Origin: a virus | Lineage: Duplodnaviria; Heunggongvirae; Uroviricota; Caudoviricetes | IMG/VR virus record: IMGVR_UViG_2579778634_000008 | Coordinates: 1 to 27,188 of that record | DNA length: 27,188 nt | Direction: 5' to 3' (one strand) | Shown: in pieces, positions 24,001 through 27,000 of the stretch | Layout of the letters: every line of letters begins with the position of its first letter | Numbering within the stretch: position 1 is the stretch's first letter | Position numbers: made by a program

Positions 24001-27000
24001 ACAGCACACAGTCCACTGGTTCTTGAGCAAAGGGGCTGATCTCATGGAGTACGCAGCGGAGATGGTTCAGGGCCTGTATGGTTTTCTCTTCAGATTGTTC
24101 CTGACTGAAGTACTGTCGAATCATCTTGCTCAGCACCTCCACCTCTGGTGTCACAGAATTCCCCATTCCTTCCTCCTTTCATTCATACGCTGCAGGTAAC
24201 GTTCATAGTGCCGGGGTTTGTTGGGGCTGAAGGAGAGCGTTCGGCACCAGAAATCATTCTTTATGAGAGTCTTACAAATACGTCGCCAGGAGGGAACATC
24301 CCGGCAGCCCAGATCATTTTCCTGTTCATCCGGGATATCATCCGGGAATCCCCGGTTCTGATACCAGCGCAGGTAGACTGCTATCTTGTTGCGGTAGTGT
24401 TCAGCCGTTCTTTCCGGCATTACGTCCAGCAGGAAGAACGCATAGCTGCGCCATGTATGATGGGATGGTTTTGACATCCGTTTACGCAGGGCAAAATAGG
24501 CCCCGCTTTCATTGGCATAAAGAGCCCCACTGGCAGCACCAGATACTCGTTCACACATCCGTGCCCAAGTTTCTGGCTCCAGAACATGATAAAGCCATAG
24601 TCCCTTACGCTGTTCCGGGCCAAAAGGCTCACAGACACGCATATTATGTAGAGGAATGCCTGCACGGTACATCAAATCATACAGAGGATTGTAGATTGCA
24701 CAGGTTTTAGCGTTATATACCCAGATATCGTTGGTTTTCCAGTCATACAGCGGATACATGGTGTAGTAAAAACCTTCAGGTGACGCCGTGGTCCAGGGTT
24801 TATCATCTGCATATCTCAGTTTTCGTTGGGAAACCAGTCCCATAAATCTGTTAAGAGATTCATCCGCGCGGACTCCAGTCAGTATTGCCACGCTACATTG
24901 GTTACTTGCGAACCAGGAAGAAAAAGCTGGGACAAATTCTTCAAAAGTCATGGCGTAGCGGTAAAAGGGGAAATACGCCATATCAGTAATAGCATCTTCC
25001 GGTGGCTGTCGAACCCACTCTACACCGGGCTCCCAGCATATCCACTCAGGCTGAAACTGCGAGACACCATTTACTGTCGTCAGGGGAAGTGCAACCCAGT
25101 AAAAGGTATCTGTTACATCTTGGTACATCATCCGCATCTTCTGTATATGATCAATGGTGCATTGATACTGGGCTTCCCAGTCAATGAACAATACAGAAAA
25201 ACGACGTTTCTTCCTGTAGGCCACTTCGGCTACAAGATGGAAAAGTACAGTGGAATCTTTACCGCCAGAAAAAGATAAACATACAGAAGAGAATGTTTCA
25301 AACAACCATTCAATGCGGTGAATGGCTGCTGACAAAACATCTTCTCCAGTTCTGATTTTTGTTATAGTTACCGGCATACAATCTGATAAAAATAGCGAGG
25401 GTTTGCATTTTACCTAGTAACGTTATGTAACTATTTTTTTGAATAAAGGCAATGAGATAATGATAAAAAATGTTTATCTAATGTACTGAGCTCTTCTCTT
25501 TATTGTATTAACTCTTCGATTTCAGCGGCGTTGTCGTTCAGGTATAAAAAAAGGAGCCGAAGCTCCTTTGGTATCAGAATTCAAATTGTCTTGCCCGCAG
25601 GCTTTTCAGCATTGGTCTGGCCCGCTGAACTACGAAACTCGACTGGTCAAGCCGTGCCGCCTCTCTCAGTAGCACATCTCTGTTCTTCGTCACCATGTAG
25701 ATAGTCTCAAACGCAATGTCATACAGCTTGTTCGTGTATGAGGAGTTCAGCTCTTTCATTATGGGGTACAGCTGCTTGCTAAGGTCCTGGGCTTTTTCCA
25801 TCCAGAGCTGCATGTAGCAGAGGAGGATTATTTCCTCGGCTGTGAATTGCGGCTGTGGTTCTGCTTGTACTGGCTGAATGTTGCGAAGTTTCTTTTCGCA
25901 CTCGATGAAGTAGCGGCGTATCTGGCGGCCTTTTTCGTTACGTTCAACCATCGCAAGCTCTTTGGCTGTGTCGAGGGTGAGGTGGTAATCCTTGCGGCGG
26001 CGGCCTGGAGTTTTCGCCAAATTTGGCGAAAATAGAATGTAGTCTAAATTTTCTACGAATCCATACTCGTTTAGCCTGGCCCGTATCCAGTTAGAAAAAT
26101 CTTTACCTACCTCTAAAAATCCATGCAAATCACGCGCGTTCACCAGAAGCGTAGGTTCATTTGAGATTGTACCTTCAAACACAGGGATGAGTTGAGTGGT
26201 CATGATGACCTCCTTTGGCTTTTTTCGAGAAATGCCACCACAAGATGTGGTGCCGGGAGGCTCGAAACGGCCCAAAAGATACCGCGGACTTATTCCCCTT
26301 GCGGGTGTTGTATTCGTCGCCCTCCCGACATTGATCGGGGATGTGACCGCACACTGTGCTATCACTGAATAACAGGCATAAAAAATCCAACACTGACGGG
26401 GTTGGTTTAATCCGCTTTTGGGAGGTTTTCGAGGCCTCGGCGCGGAGTATAGTCAGTATTGGACGCAGTCGTCAACCATCGCAAGCTCTTTGGCTGTGTC
26501 GAGGGTGAGGTGGTATTCCTTGCGGTTGTGACCGCCTCTACCTTTTGCTTCCCGAATTTGGGAAGCAATCATATAGTCCTGATTTTCAACGAAACCATAT
26601 TCAGCAATACGTTCTGTTATCCACGATGCAAAGCGTTTACCAACCCCAAGGAAAGCGTGTAGATTGCGAGCATTGCATAGAAGGGCTGCTTGGTTTGAGA
26701 TAGAACCGTTGAATACGGGGATGAGTTGACTGGTCATGATGACCTCCTTATTTGTTTAGTTTATAACCGCCAGTTAGTAGCTGGCGGTCGGGTGTCAACT
26801 GAGCCAAATAAGAAGCTCTGGGCATATTCCCCTTGCGGGTGTTGTATTACGCCTCTCCACCCGACCTTTGTACGGATGTAACTATGCCAAATTGCAGGCA
26901 TAAAAAAGCCGCAAAGCTATCGGGTGCGGAGACCGCTTATTTGTTCAGTGCGATCAGTATGCGATAGCTCTGGCGGATTTGTCAAATCGTGCAGTAACAT

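Follow-up and report, generated by a model that had tools for sequence, protein, structure and literature searches.

Tandem antirepressor genes of a Shiga toxin-phage-like prophage are each preceded by an sRNA-Xcc1 RNA that looks like a phage P1 c4-type switch

Results

Two antirepressor modules in tandem

The DNA analysed here (the window) is a stretch of 27,188 nt from a virus of the Caudoviricetes, positions 1 to 27,188 of the IMG/VR record IMGVR_UViG_2579778634_000008. Near one of its ends it carries two antirepressor (ant) modules in tandem, both with all their genes on the minus strand, and the leader of each module contains a small RNA (sRNA) of the sRNA-Xcc1 family. All features are collected in Table 1. 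A full-length ant preceded by a truncated paralogue had been predicted from the sequence (the original prediction), and Pfam searches confirmed this arrangement: the open reading frame (ORF) of the upstream module, A, has an AntA domain only, and the full-length gene of module B also matched P22_AR_C (E=4.7e-8, 33.4 bits), both domains scoring above the Pfam cut-offs. The predicted repeats were recovered at the positions given for them. The initiation context AAGGAGGTCATCATGACCA is common to both ant starts. A 44-nt stretch is identical in the two genes and forms the first part of a patch that matches at 53 of 54 nt (25944-25997 versus 26472-26525). An identical 23-mer (26292-26314 and 26826-26848) lies 89-111 nt upstream of the ATGs at 26203 and 26737, within a 29-nt repeat (26286-26314 versus 26820-26848, 93% match).

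The best promoter-like sites of the region, P_A and P_B, occupy equivalent positions in the two modules. The -35 hexamer of P_B overlaps the end of the identical patch, and the TGA stop of the AntA-only ORF lies in the P_B spacer. Downstream of the promoters, the a1-b1 boxes of module A are the direct-repeat partner (repeat D6) of 26747-26760. The a1/b1 boxes of module B, which are complementary to the junction UUUCGAG and the loop CUUUUGGG of the following RNA, were also found via L009, a locus carrying the same module as the window. Each pair of boxes is followed by a hairpin with a U-run, and the tail TTTTTTATGCCTG is conserved in both modules. These two hairpins were left unflagged by the terminator scan because their loops exceed its 8-nt limit. 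When modules A and B were aligned, the islands of identity were GCGG, TTTTTTATGCCTG, the RNA core, the region from the Shine-Dalgarno sequence (SD) to the ATG, and the patch; the a/b boxes and stems P1 and P3 of the RNA, which lie between these islands, have diverged. The two modules carry different a/b specificities.

The conserved 23-mer is the core of an sRNA-Xcc1 RNA

An Rfam scan of the whole window returned exactly two matches above the curated threshold, both to sRNA-Xcc1 (RF02221, gathering score 53 bits). Both matches cover the entire model (positions 1-87) and have one of the 23-mers at their centre. In the three-way junction, the 23-mer makes up the internal loop and GNRA hairpin of stem P2, both invariant. 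It is contained in the invariant P2 element AAUACAA..GNRA..GAAU; for the corresponding 22-nt core pattern, AATACAANACCCGNAAGGGGAA, 0.01 occurrences would be expected in the window, where two are present. This core is unchanged across phyla, whereas the pairing boxes described below vary. The original prediction had regarded the 23-mer as a candidate binding site or antisense-RNA target controlling antirepressor expression. The idea that the leader controls the antirepressor, probably at the RNA level, is supported. The proposed role of the 23-mer is not, as it belongs to the scaffold of sRNA-Xcc1 itself and the real targets are the variable boxes a1/b1 and a2/b2, which differ between the two copies.

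Viral contigs were scanned for the core, giving at least 120 loci on which all figures for viral loci are based; the counts below are among the matches listed. According to RNAalifold, stem P3 covaries, with 21-37 double changes per pair, in contrast to its loop and the 3' junction, which show neither pairing nor conservation. On the MAFFT alignment this program recovered P2 and P3 and missed P1 because two length classes of P1 were misaligned; P1 was taken from the covariance-model alignment and from a search for the helix itself. In 93 of 103 viral loci, CC follows the closing stem (ACCA in the RNA of module B, RNA-B), and a U-A 5' flank is conserved. The Xcc1 consensus reads 'CUuugu' in the P3 loop, 'UUUugAg' in the junction and 'aCC' in the tail.

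Published data show that relatives of the window RNAs exist as a discrete species of about 88 nt. In Xanthomonas campestris, cDNA cloning, rapid amplification of cDNA ends (RACE) and Northern blot revealed sRNA-Xcc1, with a length of 88 nt (PMC2996969). In Escherichia coli O157:H7 EDL933 an 89-nt sRNA-Xcc1 is among the most abundant sRNAs (25,609 reads per kilobase per million mapped reads) with a ribosome-coverage ratio of 0.02 (PMC5331693). The family was described from X. campestris integron cassettes and later treated as a virulence-linked, trans-acting sRNA with unknown targets. Individual copies have been noted upstream of an ORF6N gene in a paper on APSE phages and upstream of symE in a paper on Xanthomonas integrons. 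In Xylella fastidiosa Temecula1, five tandem copies with a spacing of about 381 nt occupy positions 1,313,466-1,315,082 of a genomic island, and in strain De Donno matches to sRNA-Xcc1, isrK and C4 run together within 400 nt (PMC12189769). These Xylella reports suggest that arrays and mixed Xcc1/c4 cassettes exist.

Loop and junction are complementary to the leader and covary with it

When the loci were set side by side, the variable P3 loop proved to be the reverse complement of a stretch immediately 5' of the SD of the downstream gene and extending into it, and the variable P3-to-P1 junction the reverse complement of a second box located 10-25 nt further upstream in the leader. This relation was quantified in 76 non-redundant viral loci, all with distinct targets, by an alignment-free measure, the longest Watson-Crick helix that an RNA segment can form with its partner region. 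For the P3 loop and the SD region, the mean helix was 6.75 nt in native pairs versus 4.5 nt in permuted pairs (standard deviation 0.11; 0/2000 reached the native value). Against its own target shuffled or reversed, the loop gave only 4.46 and 4.83 nt respectively, native helices being longer than reversed ones in 65 of the 76 loci. For the junction and the leader spacer, the corresponding values were 6.16 nt versus 4.55 nt (0/2000), with 4.09 nt for shuffled and 4.57 nt for reversed targets. The P3 loop also has a partner on the other side of the RNA: in the region from -260 to -30 upstream of the core, the mean helix was 7.8 nt for native and 5.95 nt for permuted pairs (0/2000; 74 loci). This upstream site is usually found 95-135 nt ahead of the core, with a box complementary to the junction before it and GCGG after it.

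In module A, the loop sequence CUUCUUAUUUG can pair with CAAAUAAGGAG over 11 bp including one G-U, and the junction forms a weak 4-bp helix (AGUU with AACU). In module B, the loop pairs as UCUUUUGG with CCAAAGGA in b2 and as CUUUUGGG with CCCAAAAG in b1, and the junction as UUUCGAG with CUCGAAA. A third, compensatory loop/box specificity is present in the Stx2a (Shiga toxin 2a) phage F451 (L125, 2372-2461). Its variant RNA has a diverged core, ..AAAAACAGCCGCAAGGCUAAGGAU.., and still scores 64.3 bits; the loop CUUUCGA matches both b1 (UUCGAAAG) and b2 (UCGAAAGG), which defines a third specificity class among close relatives.

The RNA is found at a constant distance from antirepressor-type genes

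In the viral loci, the next ORF with an SD begins at a nearly constant distance of 80-98 nt past the core, leaving about 30 nt between it and the RNA 3' end. The 84 distinct downstream proteins among the matches listed have AntA (17), KilA-N (17), P22_AR_N (12), Bro-N (11), ORF6N (9) or Rha (8) domains at their N-terminus, so that these six antirepressor-type classes account for 74 of the 84 (about 88%); P22_AR_C was found in 26. A sample of bacterial genomes yielded the core from Gamma-, Beta- and Alphaproteobacteria and from assemblies labelled Desulfovibrionaceae, Acidobacteria, Planctomycetota, Verrucomicrobia and Bacteroidota; 38 of 86 downstream proteins in this sample were antirepressor-type.

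In many Pseudomonas loci (L152, L127, L176, L206 and L234), a Bro-N-like gene starts about 155-170 nt past the core. At least in L152 and L234 the loop-complementary box and an SD come earlier, before an ATGGATATG start; L152 may have a short ORF ahead of the main gene, reminiscent of phage P1 icd. In Xanthomonadales loci whose P3 loops have no complementarity to the downstream leader (L128, L133, L142, L160, L181, L197 and others, from Xanthomonas, Rhodanobacter, Dyella and Lysobacter), most RNAs precede an uncharacterised protein family starting ..GYFLPEDSQLRL.. with a conserved leader, CACTTCATGGAATGAGGAGG. These members look like a functionally different branch of sRNA-Xcc1.

The truncated ant ends at a fixed junction with the promoter of the second module

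The 94-aa ORF of module A ends in ..AMVDDCVQY, that is, six codons past the patch as predicted, and these last six codons and the stop are read from the sequence of promoter P_B. Every locus with promoter B and its a1b1 boxes was preceded by an AntA-only ORF with the same junction, ..ELAMV followed by DDCVQY and the stop. The junction is therefore old and fixed rather than a recent accident. The part of the ORF upstream of it falls into three diverged types and six variants, all intact and 94-95 aa long; this intactness could be inherited from recombination with full-length genes. The ant of module A has lost its C-terminal half at the fixed junction with promoter B, and the RNA, promoter and targets of the module are intact.

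The two AntA domains are about 65% identical as protein. Within the patch, all 14 codons for the same amino acid are identical (14/14), versus 21/42 in the rest of the AntA domain, where nucleotide identity is 61%. Synonymous identity is thus confined to the patch, which ends at the fixed junction that forms the promoter of the second module. In other genomes, patch variants are common to both copies of one genome (CTGGCG twice in L103 versus CTTGCG in the window), a signature of repeated gene conversion between the tandem paralogues. Judged from these substitution patterns, the 44/54-nt patch behaves as a gene-conversion or recombination tract between the two AntA domains, in agreement with the scar that had been proposed.

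The number of modules in relatives ranges from one to three, and every module has a separate RNA: phage F451 has two cassettes, and an O22:H8 strain has three (fragment, ant and BRO), all with an Xcc1 RNA of their own. The only ant of phage VT2-Sakai is full-length (H0160, with the annotation 'similar to 933W L0142'); in promoter, a1b1, RNA and a2b2 it is identical to module A. The original prediction had named single-ant relatives without a leader motif as its counter-case; this single-ant phage has the same leader. We rejected the idea that the VT2-Sakai ant is a simple deletion product of the tandem pair, since its 5' part is 92.8% identical to module A and the gene only 84% identical to the full ant.

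Prophage setting of the modules

Several complete E. coli chromosomes match the region at 99.8% identity; in them, it forms the outermost part of a lambdoid, Stx-phage-like prophage in ynfG. Related sequences were found in about 190 phage records, the majority from Stx-converting phages. The host genes ynfE-ynfF-ynfG' are oriented to read into antirepressor module A. The end of the window at about 27183-27188 (L001 6923-7006) corresponds to truncated ynfG, the site of prophage insertion, and in the excised circular phage module A would adjoin attP. Between the prophage/host junction and P_A, there are two copies, 20 bp apart, of the near-palindromic 14-mer ATGCAAAGCTTTGT (27071-27110, minus strand). 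The scan gives both as one long hairpin, and they could be an operator or arm sites for integrase or integration host factor (IHF). A PAPS-reductase-like gene and an IbrB-like gene lie downstream of the modules; the names of the neighbouring genes (14395-25377) are taken from the annotation of an identical RefSeq prophage.

Table 1. Features of the two antirepressor modules and neighbouring genes. Positions are those of the window.
Feature	Position	Strand	Details
Promoter-like P_A	26956..26985	minus	TTGACA-18-CATACT; 10/12 matches; just upstream of a1b1 of module A
a1-b1 boxes, module A	26936..26950	minus	CACTGAACAAATAAG; complementary to RNA-A junction and P3 loop
5-bp hairpin and U6, module A	26902..26929	minus	CCGCA..TGCGG CTTTTTT; read from sequence; between a1b1 and RNA-A
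RNA-A, sRNA-Xcc1 three-way junction	26778..26866	minus	Rfam RF02221, 69.1 bits
RNA-A b' (P3 loop)	26804-26815	minus	CTTCTTATTTGG
RNA-A a' (junction)	26794-26801	minus	CAGTTGAC
a2-b2 and Shine-Dalgarno, module A	26743..26761	minus	AACTAAACAAATAAGGAGG
AntA-only ORF, module A	26453..26737	minus	94 aa; Pfam AntA only, E=1.8e-25, 89.8 bits
Promoter-like P_B	26446..26475	minus	TTGACG-18-TATACT; 10/12 matches
a1 and b1 boxes, module B	26412..26433	minus	a1 CTCGAAAA; b1 CCCAAAAG
5-bp hairpin and U6, module B	26380..26405	minus	CCAAC..GTTGG ATTTTTT; read from sequence; between a1b1 and RNA-B
RNA-B, sRNA-Xcc1 family	26244..26329	minus	Rfam RF02221, 73.4 bits
RNA-B b' (P3 loop)	26271-26281	minus	TATCTTTTGGG
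RNA-B a' (junction)	26259-26268	minus	GTTTCGAGCC
a2, module B	26220-26230	minus	TCTCGAAAAAA; a2 CTCGAAAAAA
b2 and Shine-Dalgarno, module B	26209-26219	minus	GCCAAAGGAGG; b2/SD CCAAAGGAGG
Full-length ant, module B	25574..26203	minus	209 aa; AntA E=1.1e-26, 93.6 bits
Patch in full-length ant	25944..25997	minus	Partner 26472-26525; encodes ..YHLTLDTAKELAMV
Intrinsic-terminator-like hairpin and T-run	25550..25569	minus	Closes ant module; terminator scan
PAPS-reductase-like protein	24151-25377	minus	RefSeq prophage annotation
IbrB-like (ParB-like) protein	23522-24166	minus	RefSeq prophage annotation
Panacea-domain protein	22909-23433	plus	RefSeq prophage annotation
2787-aa ORF, LPD38 domain	within 14395-25377		Frameshifted in RefSeq prophage record

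Discussion

A probable c4-like RNA switch for each ant gene

The membership of both RNAs in the sRNA-Xcc1 family, the constant geometry, the association with antirepressors, the two covarying complementarities and the match to the architecture of phage P1 c4 are the observations on which our interpretation is built. We consider it quite probable that translation of each ant gene is repressed, through base-pairing, by a c4-like antisense RNA of its own. Each module would then be a self-contained RNA immunity cassette of the phage P1 immI (c4) type, in which a sigma-70-like promoter would be followed by a1-b1, a hairpin with a U-run, a tRNA-like three-way-junction RNA of about 87 nt, a2-b2 and the gene. 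Within the RNA, the closing stem P1 with its NCC tail and stem P2 with AAUACAA..GNRA..GAAU would serve as the invariant scaffold, and the P3 loop (b') and the P3-to-P1 junction (a') as variable single-stranded segments. The latter are predicted to base-pair with b2 and a2 in the ant mRNA leader, b2 overlapping the SD. We propose that this pairing occludes the ribosome-binding site and that, therefore, no Ant is made in the lysogen. The upstream a1-b1 boxes would be a competing partner, with a possible decoy or anti-antisense role.

The c4 RNA of phage P1 is processed by RNase P. By analogy, the window RNAs may be cut from the leader, with RNase P acting at the 5' end, and then act in trans. 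A CC(A/C) tail behind the closing stem and a conserved 5' flank, UA, are compatible with such processing. Within c4-like repression, trans action after processing and mainly cis action appear to us about equally likely.

Alternative explanations

The leader could instead act purely in cis, the loop and the SD forming a pseudoknot-type translational switch within the same transcript that might be set by a protein or ligand bound to the core, with no processed trans RNA at all. Such a switch would fit the fact that the RNA and its targets are always on one transcript at a fixed distance; the invariant 22-nt core, with its internal loop and GNRA hairpin, suggests a binding partner, and a1b1 and a2b2 would suit a switch as alternative partners. 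We nevertheless find it improbable, because the 88-89-nt RNA of X. campestris and EDL933 is discrete, very abundant and non-translated, because the closing stem with its NCC tail resembles RNase P substrates such as c4, and because module A keeps its RNA despite a truncated gene. Moreover, a helix of 8-11 bp made by a hairpin loop of about 10 nt in the same molecule would be sterically awkward.

The fixed site in front of antirepressor-type genes (74/84 viral cases) also speaks against an sRNA acting in trans mainly on host (virulence) genes, for which the position upstream of ant would be incidental, and covarying complementarity to the adjacent leader cannot be incidental. The literature on Xanthomonas and Xylella sRNA-Xcc1 does assume host or plant targets, and the Xanthomonadales subgroup without cis complementarity would agree with this; for the window RNAs we nonetheless hold it to be very unlikely. 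Hardly any weight is left for the 23-mer as an operator or as the target of a separate antisense RNA next to a 94-aa fragment that is a decaying duplicate without consequence: the identity of the 23-mer in both copies and the RefSeq annotation of the fragment as a partial pseudogene would fit, but the 23-mer lies inside a covariance-model match as a conserved internal loop and hairpin and is invariant across phyla where true pairing boxes vary, six variants of the fragment, with differences at up to 37 codons, all have an intact ORF and one common junction, and the module of the fragment is identical in RNA, promoter and boxes to the functional-looking one of VT2-Sakai.

Several points weigh against repression by a c4-like RNA. 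Repression (as opposed to activation), trans action and excision by RNase P are parts of the scheme that we infer from phage P1 c4. The promoter-like sites of the region are not above chance (3 found versus 2.7 expected). When RNA-A and RNA-B were run with RNAduplex against each other's targets, cognate and non-cognate pairs were not clearly separated, because both modules share the SD GGAGGUC and G/C-rich stems dominate the energies. The window has no icd-like coupled ORF between b2 and ant, unlike the c4 system. The C4, c4-a1b1 and isrK models gave no match at E<=10 in 26150-27000, nor did the Xcc1 model match the c4 region of phage P1. As neither covariance model detects the other family, the data establish a shared architecture and not homology. 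Finally, the Xanthomonadales subgroup, which makes up most of the 35 of 90 distinct genome loci without loop-leader complementarity, includes the loci nearest the original sRNA-Xcc1. The mechanism may therefore not hold family-wide, and the complementarity is demonstrated for the phage/antirepressor branch.

Implications for prophage induction

An RNA catalogued as a Xanthomonas virulence sRNA thus looks like a widespread switch on prophage induction of the phage P1 c4 type. An orphan Rfam family with members in thousands of prophages and integron cassettes thereby acquires a concrete function and target open to testing; the immunity principle of phage P1 c4, hitherto a matter of one phage group, is extended to the lambdoid Stx phages and numerous further prophages. 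With their compensatory changes, the a/b boxes would constitute a natural specificity code, and the sequence alone could be enough to read it. Prophages are induced by antirepressors, and it is induction that drives toxin production in Stx phages. Given this role of its target gene and its abundance in an O157:H7 lysogen, the RNA is a candidate for determining spontaneous induction as well as cross-talk among phages, whether co-resident or incoming.

More tentatively, sRNA-Xcc1 might be a second and far wider lineage of c4-type immunity RNAs in which tandem cassettes provide a multi-specificity shield. The module with the truncated ant would then be kept for its RNA, which would silence the ant of competing phages in trans; the boxes of module A are exactly those of the ant leader of the Stx2 phage VT2-Sakai, which would be such a target. 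If this doubtful but attractive proposal were true, the resident prophage would be protected from cross-induction and the induction of Shiga-toxin phages would be affected.

Comparison with known systems

The closest parallel is the immI region of phages P1 and P7 (C4, RF01695; c4-a1b1, RF03163), where the RNA is likewise located in the leader of an antirepressor operon on the same strand. The annotated phage P1 genome has, in this order, the promoters P1c4/P2c4, a1, b1, a hairpin with a U-run, c4 (77 nt), a2, b2 and the icd ATG; a2 begins 4 nt after c4, b2 abuts the SD and the icd ATG follows c4 by 51 nt, a distance that is about 42-48 nt here. The Rfam C4 consensus consists of a closing stem with 'aCC', a first hairpin, a second hairpin with the loop 'uUUcCuuuguua', a single-stranded 3' junction 'UuUgCcAA' and 5' 'uuuuA-uGG'. 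In both systems, then, a three-way junction of 77-89 nt with a closing stem and a CC(A) tail has a P3 loop and a 3' junction complementary to a2/b2 within about 50 nt downstream, b2 abutting or overlapping the SD. In both, a1/b1 is duplicated upstream and followed by a hairpin with a U-run, a terminator-like element between b1 and the RNA, and specificity changes are compensatory, giving heteroimmunity in the case of c4.

There are also clear differences. Stem P2 of the window RNAs is extended and contains the invariant AAUACAA..GNRA..GAAU, which is absent from c4, and stem P1 has about 9-11 bp rather than about 17. The SD paired by b' belongs to ant itself. Unlike c4, the RNA is followed by AntA, KilA-N, Bro-N, ORF6N, Rha or P22_AR genes in lambdoid and many other prophages, and the cassettes occur in tandem. 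Membership in the C4 family (RF01695, clan CL00128) was rejected for lack of a covariance-model match at E<=10. The likeness of c4 and Xcc1 may reflect either homology or convergence. A link between sRNA-Xcc1 and c4 was not found in the literature searched; c4, IsrK and sar, but not Xcc1, are listed in a review of phage sRNAs from 2025 (PMC12197685).

As members of sRNA-Xcc1 (RF02221), the window RNAs are full-length and above the gathering score, and their size fits the mapped 88-nt species. They depart from the described sRNA-Xcc1, a trans-acting, virulence-regulated RNA with unknown targets, in that their targets are adjacent and identifiable. IsrK of the Salmonella prophage Gifsy-1, encoded upstream of orf45-anrP, is similar as a short terminated transcript with target-like boxes upstream of an antirepressor-type operon, and in phage P1 the isrK model overlaps the a1b1 region; it differs in that its model has no match in the window. 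IsrK is reported to activate downstream translation (PMC12197685). The microRNA-size 24B_1 of phage Phi24B, with its proposed target d_ant, was set aside as another locus (lom-vb_24B_43; ant gene downstream of R).

In phage P22, the control of ant by the antisense RNA sar and by Arc/Mnt has the same purpose, as translation of ant is kept off in the lysogen by pairing at its ribosome-binding site, and the C-terminal domain family of P22 Ant (P22_AR_C) is shared with the window ant. Unlike sar, which is encoded on the opposite strand and overlaps its target, the window RNAs lie on the same strand as ant and pair via short boxes. We conclude that the window RNAs probably work like c4 and should not be filed as members of the C4 family.

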